From: Faecousia sp. | GTDB taxonomy: Bacteria; Bacillota; Clostridia; Oscillospirales; Oscillospiraceae | Length of the DNA: 64,000 nt | Direction of reading: 5' to 3' | Assembly (NCBI GenBank): GCA_045580345.1 | Contig: JAZNNO010000026.1 | Coordinates: 13,562 to 77,561, forward strand | Part shown: one piece after another, positions 50,261 through 57,560 of the stretch | How the letters are laid out: the number at the start of each line of letters is the position of its first letter | Numbering within the stretch: the stretch's first letter is position 1 | Program-made: the position numbers and the translations under genes | Notes under the pieces: generated by a model | The model's database searches: none | Told to the model about the DNA's origin: nothing | What the model saw: the letters and a program-made list of their open reading frames with translations, nothing else

Positions 50261-51352
50261 TTATCGCAATATATAGCCGTAGCCGTTATAGAGTGTCTGG
50301 CCGGCTTTGACCCGCTCCAGGAACTTCCTCTGGAAATCATTTTTCGGTACCAATTCATCCAGCGGTCCAATCGTGGGCGTACCGAAAACATGCCAAAACA
50401 GGGAGTATCCATTGACGGTGGTAACCACAATGCGGAACCGCTTCTGGAAACGGACAATATTGGATTCCGGATTCAAAAATTCCTTGATGTCGGTGTTCAG
50501 CAGCCAGGAGCTGCAAACATAGGCCTTAAAATCTACATCCGCATAATGGTCGGCAAAGAACTTGTCCGCAAGGGCAAAGGCCTCGTCGATCAGATCCGGC
50601 GTCATTCTGCCATCGGCAGGAATGTGGACAGAGAGCACATCGTCGCCGGTTTGCAGTACCTTTTCATAGTCAGAAACCTTGATGGTGATGGGGGTATTGG
50701 AAAAATTGCCATTTTCGTCAAAGGTAAAGCACTCCATAGTGTCTCCGTCCTGCCGGATATACGGCTCAAACAACTCCCCGGTATAGGTGGATGGGGGCCG
50801 TTTGCCGGTGGGCATATACTGGAATCCGGGGAGGGCAACAGAAAGCATCTGTCCGGTTTGCTTATTCCGGTAAACCTCAAAGGCGCTGTTGAATTTGGTG
50901 ATCTCAAACAAGAGTCTTCCGATCCGGTACTCCAGCGGTATCAAATGATTGACCATAGAGTAACGGTGCAGACCCCGCAGGCCGTAGCTGCCGTATTGAG
51001 TCTTGCTTTTCTCCAGGGATTCTTTGTATTTTTTCAATGCGCCGAGCTTATAGGAGCTGGGTATGCCCCGCTGACCCAGCACTTCATCCATCCGCTCATA
51101 GCGGGCCAGGAACAGCACCGCAAACAGAAAACCTTCTTCTTTCCCGTCCTTTTCCGGCAGGGCCTCCACCTGGGCCAAGGTATACTTTTTGTTGTCAAAA
51201 ATATCATCATGGTAGGTCTGGATCAGCTCCAGCAGATCCTCCCGCTCCCGCAGAAATGCCAGGTAGTCAGCCAAAGCCTTTTCCTGCTCCGGCGTAAATT
51301 CATAGCTGGGCAGCTTTTTATGCAGTTCTTTTACGGTAGAGATCAGTTCCAT
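50261..51352 (-). CDS. Acyltransferase-domain protein (NAT_N/GNAT_C, DUF5596-like)
   Basis: RIGRLLFE, VLSVHIP, CSSWLL..L.PESNIVRFQKRF. Confidence 0.75.
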   Translation of the reverse strand: MELISTVKELHKKLPSYEFTPEQEKALADYLAFLREREDLLELIQTYHDDIFDNKKYTLAQVEALPEKDGKEEGFLFAVLFLARYERMDEVLGQRGIPSSYKLGALKKYKESLEKSKTQYGSYGLRGLHRYSMVNHLIPLEYRIGRLLFEITKFNSAFEVYRNKQTGQMLSVALPGFQYMPTGKRPPSTYTGELFEPYIRQDGDTMECFTFDENGNFSNTPITIKVSDYEKVLQTGDDVLSVHIPADGRMTPDLIDEAFALADKFFADHYADVDFKAYVCSSWLLNTDIKEFLNPESNIVRFQKRFRIVVTTVNGYSLFWHVFGTPTIGPLDELVPKNDFQRKFLERVKAGQTLYNGYGYILR

Positions 51353-53586
51353 AGTTCTTCCTCCTTGAGAAGATCATCAATTGTTGTGTATAGGTCACTG
51401 GGTTCAGCGGGATGCATATTCTTAAGGGGCAGCGCCTTAAATGCATCGAAGATCTTTTCGCGTTCCGCCAGGAAATCTTCCGCGGGAACGGCTGCACCCT
51501 TTTCGGATTTTTCTGCCCAGGCAGCCAGCACATCCGCCTCCTTGGTGTAGACGAATGCCACCAGCTCATAGGCCGCGGTGCGGCAATAGTCATTGAGGAT
51601 ATTATCCTTGAGGGCATCCTCGAAATAGGGATTGACCTTCCGGTTCTTTCCCTGGTGGCACAGGGTCTCATACATAGAATAGTCGCTGTGGGCAGAGAGC
51701 ACCCGGGCAAAGCCCTCCAGCAATTTCCTGTTGGCGGCAAATTTGGCAACAGCTGCATCCTTTTCGCCTTCTGCCAGGGTAATGCAGGCATCTATGTAGT
51801 CGATATGGAGCTTTTGGGTCAGCGCAGAGCGGATCAGGTCCACACAATCCCGCAAAACAAATCTGGCTTCCAACACATCCTTAGGCAGCGCCTTGATTTT
51901 TTCCAAAAGGGCTACGATCTGCTTATTGTAAGGCTTTTGCTCTGCCACCACTTTGGACCATTTCTCCATAGCCTTTTCGTGGTTAGGATGGTTGACATCT
52001 GCTAAGCTTCGGATAATGCCGCTTTTCAGCAGGTTGAATACACAGCTGGTATAGTCGATATCCGCCAAATTCAGCATGGGCACAAAGCTCTGCCAAATGT
52101 CATCCATTACCTCGGCATTTTCTCCATAGCGGTTTTGGCACATAGTACTTGCCACCTGGCTGATGCTGCGACCGGTGGGTTTCCATGCATTTTCTGCAAA
52201 GTAGGCGAGCATCAAAGTATCGCTGTGGGACATCTCCGGCCAAAAGTCCATACCCTTACAGCAGGGATCGGCATCGGCCTGGGCGATCTTCTTTTCGATA
52301 AAATCATAGTCGCCGTGGGTATTGGTCTGAGGCATATAGCCGTGGAACAGGCCAAAGATCCAGGGGAAATTGCCCATTATGCCCCACTTGTCCATATTGC
52401 TCTTTTCAAATTTCAGATCGACTGTATAATCCAGGATCAGGGTATTGTCCGGGTCGAACATCTTGACGATTTCCTGCACTTCCTCCGGGGTCAAGCGGAA
52501 GTAGAAATCCCAAGCGGCGATCAGCACCTTGGCATTGGGGTGATTTTCGTGGATATGGGTCAAAAACCGCTTGTAGGCAAACTTTTTCAGCTCCAGATTT
52601 TTCTTGGGGTCGTCGCTGAATTTCCGCTCAGCCAAACCGATGGTATGGAACAGATCGGGCCTGCCGTATTCTTTCACACTGGCCTCGGTGAGCTTCATAT
52701 AATTTTCTACATTTTTATCATCGAATATATCCCAAACCTGGCCTGTCTGCTCGGAATATGTAGAGCTTACCTGGCTCATAAGGGTGGGCTTTTCCGCCTC
52801 CAAAAACTTCACGGGGGTACGGGAGTACCAGTGGGTCATGGTGCCGAAATCCTCCGGGTGCATCAGATCGTGCTGGAAGGCATAGTCCATCACCTTTTTC
52901 CGAAGCTGACCCCGATACTGCAGCGGCCAGGCGGTGGTGCGGTTATTATAGCCTGTACCGGCACCAGGCAATTTCTCATCCTCGGGAGGATAGGGTACGA
53001 TATCCGGAAAGGCCTTTTGGAAGATATCGTCCATACCGATGCGGAGCATAAAGGTATTAAGTCGGGCTTTTACCAGCCAATCGATCTCCCGCTTCCATTC
53101 CTCCCAGTCCCAGTGCTCCGCCTGGAATCGGGTCAAGCCCCGGTGGGCAAAGTAGCGGATAGCCCGGTACTGAAACCGGGGGCTCTCAACAATATGCAAA
53201 TCGGTAATGTCGATGGTGTCTTTATGGGGGATCACATCGCCATCCCAAAAATAGTGGCAACCGGCTCTGCGCTCGAAGAAATCGTACACACCGTATAAGG
53301 TAGAACGGCCCCGGCCGCCGGCAATAAACAAAAAGTTCCGGCCTCCCTCTTTCTGAGAGATGATGCAGTAATCGTCGGTGCCGCTGCGGACAGGAAATCC
53401 CCCATCCAGCTTGGCGAAGGCAAAGGGCTGCACATCATCTGCGCCGATGACCACCATATCCTCCGTATCACTGGGGGTAGTCTTGACAGAAAGCTCTGTG
53501 CCGGTGATTTGGGCATACAGATCCCGGAAAATCTCAGCCGCTTTTTTGTAAGCAGGGCCACCTGCCTTGGGTGCCAAAATAAACAT
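51343..53586 (-). CDS. Divergent GH89-like alpha-N-acetylglucosaminidase protein
   Basis: N-terminal GH20b/GH67-like domain (GGRGRSTLYGVYDF), then PRFQYR..WDWEEWKREIDWL..LN; no signal peptide. Confidence 0.65.
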   Translation of the reverse strand: MFILAPKAGGPAYKKAAEIFRDLYAQITGTELSVKTTPSDTEDMVVIGADDVQPFAFAKLDGGFPVRSGTDDYCIISQKEGGRNFLFIAGGRGRSTLYGVYDFFERRAGCHYFWDGDVIPHKDTIDITDLHIVESPRFQYRAIRYFAHRGLTRFQAEHWDWEEWKREIDWLVKARLNTFMLRIGMDDIFQKAFPDIVPYPPEDEKLPGAGTGYNNRTTAWPLQYRGQLRKKVMDYAFQHDLMHPEDFGTMTHWYSRTPVKFLEAEKPTLMSQVSSTYSEQTGQVWDIFDDKNVENYMKLTEASVKEYGRPDLFHTIGLAERKFSDDPKKNLELKKFAYKRFLTHIHENHPNAKVLIAAWDFYFRLTPEEVQEIVKMFDPDNTLILDYTVDLKFEKSNMDKWGIMGNFPWIFGLFHGYMPQTNTHGDYDFIEKKIAQADADPCCKGMDFWPEMSHSDTLMLAYFAENAWKPTGRSISQVASTMCQNRYGENAEVMDDIWQSFVPMLNLADIDYTSCVFNLLKSGIIRSLADVNHPNHEKAMEKWSKVVAEQKPYNKQIVALLEKIKALPKDVLEARFVLRDCVDLIRSALTQKLHIDYIDACITLAEGEKDAAVAKFAANRKLLEGFARVLSAHSDYSMYETLCHQGKNRKVNPYFEDALKDNILNDYCRTAAYELVAFVYTKEADVLAAWAEKSEKGAAVPAEDFLAEREKIFDAFKALPLKNMHPAEPSDLYTTIDDLLKEEELWN

Positions 53587-53693
53587 AGGCATTCCCCTTT
53601 CAAAGTCGTTCTTAGAAGAATTATACCATTATCTGCTCCTATGGGCAACCTAAAAAACAACAGAAAAGGTTCAATTTTTAACTATAACTATAC

Positions 53694-53739: not shown

Positions 53740-54939
53740 TTAGGCTTCCAGGTTGATGCCGGTGTCCTTGCTGAACACGTGGCAGTTGTGGCCGCCGAAG
53801 TCGAAGGTCACCTTGGTGCCGGACTTCATTGCAGCAACCTCTGCTTCGCTCATGTCCATGGTGGAAACAACAGCGACAACGTCCTTGCCGTAAGCGTTCA
53901 TGTGCAGGTGGACGGAAGAACCCATCATTTCGTGCACGTCGATCTCAGCCTCAACGCCCTTGTCGCCCAGAGTGATGTGCTCGGGACGGACACCCAGGGT
54001 GATAGCCTGCTCTTCGACCTTGTTAGCAGTCAGGGCAGCCTGCTTCTCATCGCTCAGCACAACAGTGTGGCCGTGCAGCTCGATAGCGTACTTGCCATCA
54101 ACCTTGACCAGCTTGGACTCGAAGAAGTTCATCTGAGGTGCGCCGATAAAGCCGGCGACGAACAGGTTGTAGGGGTGGTTGAACACTTCCTGAGGAGTGC
54201 CGATCTGCTGGATGAAGCCGTCCTTCATGATGACGATACGGTCGCCCAGAGTCATAGCCTCGGTCTGGTCGTGGGTAACGTAGATAAAGGTGGTATCGAT
54301 ACGCTTGCGGAGCTTGATGATCTCAGCACGCATCTGGTTACGCAGCTTGGCGTCCAAGTTGGACAGAGGTTCGACCATCAGGAAGACCTTGGGGTCACGG
54401 ACGATAGCACGACCGATAGCCACACGCTGACGCTGACCGCCGGACAGAGCCTTGGGCTTACGGTTCAGGTACTCGGTGATCTCCAGGATCTCAGCAGCCT
54501 GCTTAACCTTCTTGTCGATCTCGCCCTTGGGAACCTTGCGGAGCTTCAGAGCGAAAGCCATGTTATCATAAACAGTCATGTGGGGGTACAGAGCGTAGTT
54601 CTGGAAGACCATTGCGATATCGCGGTCCTTAGGAGCTACATCATTGACGATCTTGTCGTCGATGATCAGTTCGCCCTCAGTGATCTCTTCCAAACCGGCG
54701 ACCATACGCAGAGTGGTGGACTTACCACAGCCGGAAGGACCGACCAAAACGATAAATTCCTTGTCTGCGATCTCCAGGTTGAACTCCTGAACAGCCACGA
54801 CGCCCTTGTCGGTAATCTGCAGATTGACCTTGGTGCTGACGCCTTCGGTGTTCTTCTTGTTCTTCTTTCTGGACTTCTTCTCTTCGTCGCCCAGGTAGGG
54901 GTAGATCTTCTTGACGTTTTTCAGAACAACAGTTGCCAT
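53740..54939 (-). CDS. msmX: Orphan sugar ABC transporter ATPase (MsmX/MalK/UgpC family)
   Basis: GPSGCGKST, RDIAMVFQNYALYPHM, LSGGQRQRVA, YVTHDQTEAM, GVRPEH; Walker B reads VFLMVE; Lys-rich N-terminal insertion. Confidence 0.9.
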   Translation of the reverse strand: MATVVLKNVKKIYPYLGDEEKKSRKKNKKNTEGVSTKVNLQITDKGVVAVQEFNLEIADKEFIVLVGPSGCGKSTTLRMVAGLEEITEGELIIDDKIVNDVAPKDRDIAMVFQNYALYPHMTVYDNMAFALKLRKVPKGEIDKKVKQAAEILEITEYLNRKPKALSGGQRQRVAIGRAIVRDPKVFLMVEPLSNLDAKLRNQMRAEIIKLRKRIDTTFIYVTHDQTEAMTLGDRIVIMKDGFIQQIGTPQEVFNHPYNLFVAGFIGAPQMNFFESKLVKVDGKYAIELHGHTVVLSDEKQAALTANKVEEQAITLGVRPEHITLGDKGVEAEIDVHEMMGSSVHLHMNAYGKDVVAVVSTMDMSEAEVAAMKSGTKVTFDFGGHNCHVFSKDTGINLEA

Positions 54940-55117
54940 AACTTCTCGACTCTAAACATACCGACTCCTCGCGTATGCTCTCACTGCCGGCGTAAAAATG
55001 TCCGGTCAGCATTACGACAGGTCTCCACACTGCCGCACCGTGAGTCAAACGGATAAATTTCCTCCTTTTTTTACGTCACGGACTTAATTTTGTGGAGTTA
55101 AGGCCGTGCGATGGGAT
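54940..55117 (-). ncRNA. Highly structured 5' leader RNA of msmX (5 helices, 2 pseudoknots)
   Basis: P1 55077-55108; P2 55042-55048/54946-54952 enclosing P3, P4 and P5; perfect 7-bp and 8-bp long-range pairings. Confidence 0.65.
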
Positions 55118-55123
55118 GGTAGT

Positions 55124-55152
55124 ATGATAGCACAGATTTCCTGCGCAGTCAA
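55124..55152 (-). promoter_or_regulatory. SigA promoter of msmX
   Basis: TTGACT-17-TATCAT with extended TG. Confidence 0.7.
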
Positions 55153-55196
55153 CTGTTAGTTTTCACAGAACTTGGCAAAATTTTTGTGCATTGTGC

Positions 55197-56480
55197 TTAT
55201 TTTACGGTGAAACCTCCGTTTTCTGTCACTTTCAGGGTGATACCATAGTAAGCGGTCATTGCCTTTTGCAGGTAGGTCACATCCTGCACGCCTGCAGTTT
55301 CATAGCAGGAGTGCATGGCCAGCTGGGCAAGACCGATGTCCACACTGGGCACTGCCACCTGGCGCAGGGAGATATTGCCCAAGGTAGAGCCACCGGCAAT
55401 GTCTGCCCGGTTGCAGTAGGTCTGCACAGGCACATCGGCCTTTTGGCAGACCTTACGGAAGATGGCGGCGGACTGACCGTCGGTGGTGTACTTCTGATTG
55501 GCATTGAACTTGATCACCACGCCGCCGTTCAGCACGGGAGCATTATTCCCATCGGACAGCTCCGGGTGGTTGGGATGGAGGGCGTGACCGTTATCTGCCG
55601 ACACTAAGAAGGATTTTGCCTTCTGACAGCTTTCTTCCAGGTTAAGCTCCCGGCAGATCCGGGACAAAGCACTTTCCATAAAGTCTGCGGCTGCGCCTTG
55701 GTAAGAACCGGAACCCACCTCCTCGCTGTCAAAGACAGCCAGCACGGGAATGTTGGGGGTCTCCCCTGCCTTCAGGAAGCCTTGTGTACAGGCCCAGGCG
55801 CATTCCAGGTCGTCAATGGCAGGCGCAGAGAAGAATTCCTCCTCCAAGCCCCAAACAGAAGTTTCCTGCCGCACATACAGGTAAAGATCGTGGCCCAGTA
55901 CCTTGCCGCCGGCCAATTCTTCCAACTCCTGCCAGAACTTGTCCCCGGTATCCTTGCCACCCAGCAGCGGAATGGTGTCCACCGCCAAATTCCAGGCATA
56001 GCCTTCGTTGATCTTCCGGTTCATATGAATAGCCACATTGGGAATCAGCAGCAGATCCCGGCCAAAATCCACCAGGCGGTTCTCAACACCCTCTTCGGTT
56101 TCCACTGTCACCCGGCCAGCCACGGACAGAGGCCTGTCCAGCCAGGGGGAGATGATCGCGCCGCCGTATTTTTCCACTGCCAGGCGGGTATACGCACCTG
56201 CTAAAATGCCGTTTTCTTTCACCTTAAAACAGGGCCGGTCTGTGTGGCTGGCGCTGATCAGAAAGCCCTCCGGTGCTGCCTTGGGCAGTCGGAATGCCAA
56301 AACTGCGCTGCCGCCACGGGTCAGATAGTATTTCCCCCCGGGGACAAGCTCCCAGGCTTTATCCTCCTGCAGACGGGTATAGCCCGCTTTCCGAAGTTCT
56401 GCTTCCAAAGCCGCCGTAGCATGGTAAACGCTGTGGGCGCTGTTCAAAAATTGGGCTAACGCTTTCATATTCTTGTCCAT
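55197..56480 (-). CDS. M18 family aminopeptidase (ApeB/aspartyl aminopeptidase-like)
   Basis: ASHTDRP, VEKYGG..WLDRPLSVAGR, IPNVAIHMNR, DSEEVGS, HALHPN, GGSTLG, LAMHS. Confidence 0.92.
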   Translation of the reverse strand: MDKNMKALAQFLNSAHSVYHATAALEAELRKAGYTRLQEDKAWELVPGGKYYLTRGGSAVLAFRLPKAAPEGFLISASHTDRPCFKVKENGILAGAYTRLAVEKYGGAIISPWLDRPLSVAGRVTVETEEGVENRLVDFGRDLLLIPNVAIHMNRKINEGYAWNLAVDTIPLLGGKDTGDKFWQELEELAGGKVLGHDLYLYVRQETSVWGLEEEFFSAPAIDDLECAWACTQGFLKAGETPNIPVLAVFDSEEVGSGSYQGAAADFMESALSRICRELNLEESCQKAKSFLVSADNGHALHPNHPELSDGNNAPVLNGGVVIKFNANQKYTTDGQSAAIFRKVCQKADVPVQTYCNRADIAGGSTLGNISLRQVAVPSVDIGLAQLAMHSCYETAGVQDVTYLQKAMTAYYGITLKVTENGGFTVK

Positions 56481-56783: not shown

Positions 56784-57560
56784 ATGGACAATCACACCTC
56801 CGTAGTTATTGCGGACAATTCAGAAGAATTTTGCAGCGCTCTCACCGCCGCACTACATCAAACCGACCGGTTCCGGGTCTTGGATACAGCCAACGACGGA
56901 GAACGGGCCATCGCCCTGGTGTCGGAACAGAAACCGGAGATCCTGGTGCTGGATATGATGCTGGCGAAAAAGGACGGCATCAGCGTCCTGAAGGCCATCG
57001 GCACTTTGGAGCATAAACCCACGGTGCTGGCCACCTCCGGGTTTATTACCGATTATGTAGCATCCGCTGCCGCCAATTTGGGGGTGCGGTATCTGATGCT
57101 GAAGCCCTGCGACACCAGCGCAGTGGTCGAACGGCTGGAGGAGATCCGGGGTGGGGAGAGCCTGCGGACACCTGCCGCCCGTCACAGCGGTCAGCAAAAC
57201 ATCGAAACCATGGTCACCAACATTATTCATGAAATCGGCGTGCCTGCCCATATCAAGGGCTATCAGTATCTGCGGGAAGCCATTATCATCGCCGTGGAGG
57301 ATATGGACGTGATCAACGCCATCACCAAGATCCTCTATCCCCAGGTAGCAAAGACCTTCCAGACCACACCCAGCCGTGTGGAACGGGCTATCCGCCACGC
57401 AATCGAAGTTGCCTGGGATCGGGGTGACCTGGACACCTTGCAAAAGTTCTTCGGCTACACTGTCAGTAATACCAAGGGCAAACCGACAAATTCCGAGTTC
57501 ATTGCCCTCATCGCAGACAAGCTCCAGCTGCAGATGCGCTCTGCCGCTGTGAATTTCTGA
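56784..57560 (+). CDS. spo0A: Sporulation master regulator Spo0A
   Basis: Receiver domain + [43 protein letters not shown]. Confidence 0.97.

Follow-up and report, generated by a model that had tools for sequence, protein, structure and literature searches.

In Actinobacteria, the msiK motif is an orphan structured leader found before a shared sugar-ABC ATPase gene, with no ligand assigned to it. Its structure is unrelated to that of the malK-I motif, and the same is true of malK-II and malK-III. All three malK motifs were described as candidate cis-regulatory RNAs in malK 5' UTRs, near the SD (Weinberg et al. 2017, Nucleic Acids Res 45:10811, PMC5737381). In that paper, malK-II and malK-III likewise appear as orphan structured leaders near the ribosome-binding site of shared sugar-ABC ATPase genes, with no ligand, and no binding is recorded for the few ligands tried with malK motifs (PMC5737381). 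Our literature search for 'malK-I' found no later experimental validation of that motif.

Structured RNAs can act directly at the site of ribosome binding. SAM-II and preQ1-II are H-type pseudoknot riboswitches at the ribosome-binding site, in which a hairpin loop pairs with the strand just upstream of the start codon. A different arrangement is seen in phage T4 gene 38, where the ribosome-binding site is split and a small hairpin spanning ~20 nt brings a distant SD closer.

Here, we analyze the leader of an msmX gene in a stretch of 64,000 nucleotides from Faecousia sp., referred to as the window. A preliminary description, made from the letters alone, had presented this leader as a double-pseudoknot RNA and as its top candidate.

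Results

The msmX leader is a full-length malK-I RNA

The genes surrounding the leader and the predicted promoter are as follows.

53740..54939, minus strand: msmX/malK-type ABC ATPase gene, 399 aa, with ABC_tran, OB_MalK and TOBE_2 domains; the regulated gene
51343-53592, minus strand: NAGLU-like alpha-N-acetylglucosaminidase (hydrolase) gene, neighbor of msmX
55197-56480: M18 aminopeptidase gene, neighbor of the msmX leader
56784-57560, plus strand: Spo0A gene, with Response_reg and Spo0A_C domains
55124..55152, minus strand: predicted sigma-70-type promoter, TTGACT, 17-nt spacer, extended -10 TGcTATCAT

The msmX gene starts with the ATG at 54939 and is not adjoined by a permease or binding-protein gene. 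Spo0A and the NAGLU-like gene flank the locus, which is consistent with a spore-former-derived, glycan-degrading lineage of gut Clostridia. The nearest named relatives of the MsmX protein are found in Faecousia and in other Oscillospiraceae MAGs from animal guts. At residues ~14-45 (54800-54900, minus strand), a lysine-rich insertion (…PYLGDEEKKSRKKNKKNTEG…) separates the first strand of the protein from its Walker A region. In many homologues, the alignment begins only at residue 35-49, and some leaderless homologues have a K/R-rich insert at the same position.

The segment 54934-55115 on the minus strand (182 nt) matches the Rfam family malK-I (RF03069) with 142.2 bits against a gathering score of 60.3 (E = 3.5e-29). 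The match covers model positions 1-181 of 181, is not truncated and extends into the first two codons of msmX (AUGGCA). It was reproduced in three separate searches. In the Rfam scan of the whole window it is the single match above threshold, and the motif is present as a single copy in the whole genome. Apart from the score, the leader shares with the family its helices P1-P5, the invariant blocks ACUCCA, AAAGGAGGA, GGUGCGGCAGUGUGGAGACCUG and AUGGCA, its location in the 5' UTR, up to the start codon, of a malK-type ATPase gene, and a host within the Clostridia. Nothing of substance differs from malK-I; the peculiarities of the window are a complementarity between the A-run and the P4 loop and a TTG after the SD.

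By sequence comparison, the msmX leader is thus the known orphan motif malK-I and not a new class. The preliminary description had correctly placed it among riboswitch-like cis-regulatory leaders of the malK/msiK kind. It had also stated that the element would count as known if a full-length Rfam hit turned up, and with such a match at hand its novelty does not stand.

malK-I accompanies the stand-alone form of msmX

Of 151 genomes sampled from the window's family, 52 carry the motif; in an order-wide sample it was detected in 6 of 151, and 14 control genomes gave no match. With an HMM built from our alignment, the leader was located immediately in front of msmX at 55 of 80 named Clostridia loci, among them records of Flavonifractor, Angelakisella, Lachnospiraceae, Christensenellaceae and Holdemanella. 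For comparison we used 87 malK-I instances from Oscillospiraceae and other Clostridia in an anchor-based analysis; 34 instances from different genera were aligned. One genome (G090) contains two malK-I copies (L006 and L007, on contigs C28 and C10) before two msmX paralogues, and has seven MsmX-like matches in total.

A different organization is seen in six loci (L086, L098, L126, L131, L132 and L133), in which the MsmX-like gene lies directly behind a permease gene ending in …EGVTGGAVKG*, with a normal SD and no leader. From these leaderless, permease-adjacent loci it follows that the malK-I leader goes with the stand-alone form of msmX. A block that first resembled a shared leader in the six loci proved to be the 3' end of the permease gene. 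The sister motifs malK-II, malK-III and msiK gave no Rfam match in the window or in the 35 scanned loci of homologues lacking malK-I, and those 35 loci matched no other Rfam family either.

Transcription of the leader

The site TTGACT-17-TGcTATCAT is the sole promoter-like site within 54700-55400. It matches 10 of 12 positions and has the TG extension, in agreement with the promoter proposed earlier at 55124-55152. From this predicted promoter, transcription would start at ~55117, the first position of the motif. A promoter conserved at a fixed distance was considered for the family and rejected: the mean score was 8.2 compared to 7.3 in shuffles, and a clear site is present only in the window and a few relatives. 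In many GC-rich relatives the malK-I motif comes right behind an upstream coding end. At six such loci (L002, L004, L013, L015, L030 and L033), the 60 nt ahead of the motif contain a conserved, coding-like end (…TTCCGCGGCGA…GTC…GCGG…) with no recognizable promoter in between, and the leader may therefore be co-transcribed there with the upstream gene.

Metatranscriptome contigs from gut libraries bridge the AUG into the leader without differences (54785-54970 in X1, 54895-54976 in X3), and a third contig extends to 55041. These contigs, from which transcript start and ends are not derivable, weakly support co-transcription of the leader and msmX, with DNA carry-over possible. No contig was found over 55078-55281, which proves nothing about transcription there. 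Over 55010-55043, the summed contig depth in runs X1 and X2 is very high on the invariant P3 block, where the contigs have loose ends (…TTCCTCCTTTT…). This depth shows that many related malK-I leaders of other organisms are present in those gut libraries.

Helices P1-P5 are conserved and covary

The leader folds into five helices, with an SD-like element in the linker between P1 and P2.

55077..55108, minus strand: P1 hairpin, CACGG-c-CUUAA / UUAAG-u-CCGUG, 10-nt loop CUCCACAAAA
55061..55068, minus strand: conserved A-rich SD-like element AAAGGAGG, ~118-121 nt before the AUG, containing AAGGAGG (55067-55061)
55048-55042 / 54952-54946, minus strand: P2, UUGACUC/GAGUCGA, 3' strand ending 5-6 nt before the AUG
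55013..55037, minus strand: P3 hairpin, UGCGGCAG / CUGUCGUA, invariant loop block GUGUGGAGAC
54983..55010, minus strand: P4 hairpin, GCUG-a-CCGG / CCGG-CAGU, variable loop ACAUUUUUACG
54955..54979, minus strand: P5 hairpin, AGCAUAC / GUAUGUU, cap CGA-GGAG-UCG, family loop consensus GCGGAGGC

These are the helices of the Rfam malK-I consensus and also those drawn in the preliminary description; they are kept in the family with compensatory changes. The consensus extends the P4 drawn there and has two further pairs inside its P3 loop. Among the 34 aligned instances, 23 of the 31 predicted pairs in P2-P5 show compensatory changes. They are numerous in P2 (pairs 94-98/189-193), and the P4 stem covaries strongly while its loop is not conserved. 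P1 was misaligned by MAFFT and was assessed instead by plain MFE for each instance. A P1 hairpin with (C/A)UCC in a 10-12-nt loop forms in 77 of 85 instances, representing 71 distinct stem sequences. The P3 sequence GUGGAGAC is unchanged in essentially all 87 instances. The loop of P5 is capped by GGAG and reads GCGAGGAGUC in the window, where the family consensus is GCGGAGGC. In both G090 copies the P5 loop is atypical (GCAAGUUC). For the leader as a whole, the MFE is modestly better than that of shuffles (z = -1.8, not decisive), and support for the structure comes from sequence comparison rather than from thermodynamics.

Px crosses P2 as a candidate second pseudoknot

Two long-range pairings had been proposed for the window, here called PK1 and PK2. 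A further hairpin, Px, was not listed in the preliminary description.

55092..55097, minus strand: 5' side of the candidate pseudoknot PK1, CUCCAC in the P1 loop
55028-55023, minus strand: 3' side of the candidate pseudoknot PK1, GUGGAG in the P3 loop
55075-55068 with 54998-54991, minus strand: PK2, CGUAAAAA with UUUUUACG, 7-8 bp in the window
55052-55049 / 55041-55038, minus strand: Px hairpin, CCGU / ACGG, with the 7-nt loop UUGACUC (55048-55042) that is the P2 5' strand

PK1 was originally described as the seven-pair helix CUCCACA/UGUGGAG. Six of these pairs (CUCCAY with GUGGAG in the family) are possible in 31-34 of 34 instances, but the seventh is kept in only 6 of 34. In 80 of 84 cases, pairing of the P1 loop with the P3 loop is more favorable than its pairing with the SD-like element, with medians of -10.3 and -6.8 kcal/mol, respectively. 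No two-sided covariation was detected in the 34 aligned instances, and PK1 is not provable in this way because both sides are almost invariant. The P1-loop variants AUCCAC, CUCCU and CUCCC are not followed by a change in the P3 loop. PK1 by itself therefore does not account for the invariance of GUGGAGAC, which must have some further cause. On this comparative evidence, PK1 is a plausible long-range pairing.

PK2 is restricted to the window. As a family feature it was rejected, since only 28% of the alignment cells pair and, in an alignment-free test, the 33 other instances reach at best 1-5 bp, the same as shuffles.

The Px stem (CCGY/RCGG) directly flanks the P2 5' strand. At least 4 bp are formed in 81 of 83 distinct linkers, compared to 28% of shuffles. 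The stem covaries: pair 4 is C-G in 54 cases, U-A in 18, U-G in 7 and G-C in 2, and pair 3 is G-C in 78 and C-G in 4. Both G090 copies carry the variant CCCGG/CCGGG, in which pair 3 is swapped to C-G. Since the Px loop is the 5' strand of P2, the two helices cross. Their geometry is that of a classical H-type pseudoknot, with 4-5 bp in stem 1, 0-2 nt in the first loop, 5-8 bp in stem 2 and P3-P5 as the long loop. The two stems may coexist as an H-type pseudoknot, or they may be mutually exclusive. The label 'double pseudoknot' thus holds in altered form: the second crossing is that of Px against P2, and PK2 drops out.

The strong SD lies far upstream of the start codon

Each of the 87 instances carries the distal SD 110-124 nt ahead of its AUG, and the median energy of the duplex with the anti-SD is -11.8 kcal/mol. 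It is located 4-11 nt 5' of Px and 9-17 nt from P2. The 20 nt before the AUG of the leader-linked genes have a median of only -2.4 kcal/mol and reach -6 in 6 of 87 cases, so that a proximal SD is weak or missing in 81 of 87. The contrast between a strong AAGGAGG far upstream and a weak SD at the start codon, pointed out earlier for the window, is therefore a conserved trait. The usual place of the SD is taken by P2, whose distance to the AUG is 4-8 nt, most often 6 nt, in 31 of 34 instances.

Leaderless MsmX homologues, in contrast, have a normal proximal SD in 27 of 34 cases. The median is -8.6 kcal/mol for the 19 homologues of the window's family, of which 14 reach -6 or better, and -8.8 kcal/mol for the 15 named ones, of which 13 do so; the six permease-adjacent loci belong to the named homologues. 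Lack of a proximal SD thus goes with the leader, not with the gene family or these genomes. Only one of 85 instances has five or more consecutive U residues ahead of the AUG, which makes transcription attenuation unlikely.

Discussion

The observations are very probably best explained by an ordinary member of malK-I, a riboswitch-like 5' leader that acts in cis on a stand-alone msmX/malK gene, probably at translation initiation. The RNA consists of the P1 hairpin with its CUCCAY loop, an A-rich linker with AAAGGAGG, and the putative Px/P2 H-type pseudoknot enclosing the P3-P4-P5 three-way junction. Via PK1, the loop of P1 is probably docked to the invariant loop of P3. The P3-P5 junction docked to P1 would then serve as the sensor, and Px/P2, next to the AUG, as the expression platform. 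Control is most likely exerted on translation initiation, since there is no terminator and P2 occupies the usual position of an SD. A ligand or factor would cause the Px/P2 pseudoknot to form or to melt and would thereby decide whether a ribosome is loaded at the AUG. Folding may turn msmX either on or off.

The arrangement resembles SAM-II and preQ1-II in that the Px loop pairs with the strand just before the AUG, and by analogy the folding would set ribosome access. In those riboswitches, however, the 3' strand contains the SD, whereas in the msmX leader the P2 3' strand does not resemble an SD and the only SD precedes the entire pseudoknot. Simple occlusion of the start site leaves two features unexplained, an AUG without its own SD and a strong SD kept 110-124 nt upstream.

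The distal SD can be accommodated in two ways, which differ in the direction of control. It is possible, if somewhat doubtful, that AAAGGAGG is the true SD of msmX within a discontinuous ribosome-binding site: closure of Px/P2 would loop out the ~95-nt P3-P5 region and bring the SD near the AUG, such that the folded, presumably ligand-bound RNA activates translation. A distal SD that is never lost, a proximal one missing in 81 of 87 leader-linked genes, the normal SDs of leaderless homologues, the narrow distance between P2 and the AUG and the lack of a conserved start codon after the distal SD all argue for this reading. A comparable solution exists in T4 gene 38, where the SD is also too far from the AUG and is brought nearer by an intervening helix; the msmX leader, unlike that small hairpin, would have to loop out a three-way junction of ~95 nt plus a pseudoknot, and would be left with a long spacer even then. 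The single-stranded stretch (d1 + d2) that separates the SD from the AUG once P2 has closed measures 13-24 nt with a median of ~19 nt, and d1 alone 9-17 nt. The usual SD-AUG spacing is ~5-9 nt. In addition, a 95-nt domain and a helix between the SD and the AUG would have to be accommodated on the 30S subunit. Alternatively, the distal SD could be a standby site in an OFF switch, holding a 30S subunit while a stabilized Px/P2 blocks the AUG, with the waiting ribosome moving on when P2 opens. This reading is unlikely; it draws on analogy with standby models from the literature. The same SD data would fit it; a 30S subunit bound 4-11 nt 5' of Px would abut the pseudoknot, and the variable distance between SD and Px suits a loose tether better than a fixed spacer. 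Opening of P2, however, would leave the SD still ~118 nt from the AUG along the chain.

Two further explanations assign the conserved GGAG elements or the distal SD to other partners. CsrA recognizes GGA in loops, and the leader has three conserved GGAG elements, two of them in hairpin loops. A regulator of this type could bind the GGA motifs of the P3 and P5 loops and of the SD-like element and thereby repress or activate msmX. We consider such a protein-sensing leader very unlikely: CsrA (PF02599) was not found in the window's genome (75% complete) and was found in only ~9 of the 52 malK-I-bearing genomes of the sample, and many bearers that are 95-100% complete lack it. The distribution of the csrA gene does not fit that of the leader, and CsrA control was rejected on these grounds; a protein other than CsrA is possible as the regulator. 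It is still harder to credit that the distal SD drives a small upstream ORF, as had been suggested for the TTG at 55048, and that translation of this ORF controls msmX. In the window, this TTG lies 12 nt after GGAGG and opens an out-of-frame ORF of 108 codons, and GUG CGG CAG UGU GGA GAC CUG UCG UAA inside P3 reads as a frame of nine codons. The TTG has no conserved counterpart, since in most homologues the distal SD is not followed by an AUG, GUG or UUG at SD spacing. The GUG in P3 is ~19-26 nt from the SD, the stop of its frame is changed to CAA in 7 of 34 instances, and the P3 block shows no synonymous variation but varies along with the P3 base pairs.

As a class, the msmX leader is nothing new; it is a further example of an orphan motif that was already published in 2017. 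What remains of interest is the SD arrangement, the Px/P2 pseudoknot 4-8 nt before the AUG and the invariant GUGGAGAC loop, which sharpen the experimental tests of on versus off. MsmX-type ATPases energize several sugar importers at once, and because they serve several importers the leader probably reads a general carbon or energy signal. Combined with the discontinuous ribosome-binding site, this yields a speculative and rather doubtful picture in which the only SD of msmX, ~118 nt upstream, becomes usable only when Px/P2 closes and loops out the P3-P5 sensor, so that a carbon-state signal switches translation on. If true, the discontinuous site would mean that a known orphan motif contains an expression platform of a new type.
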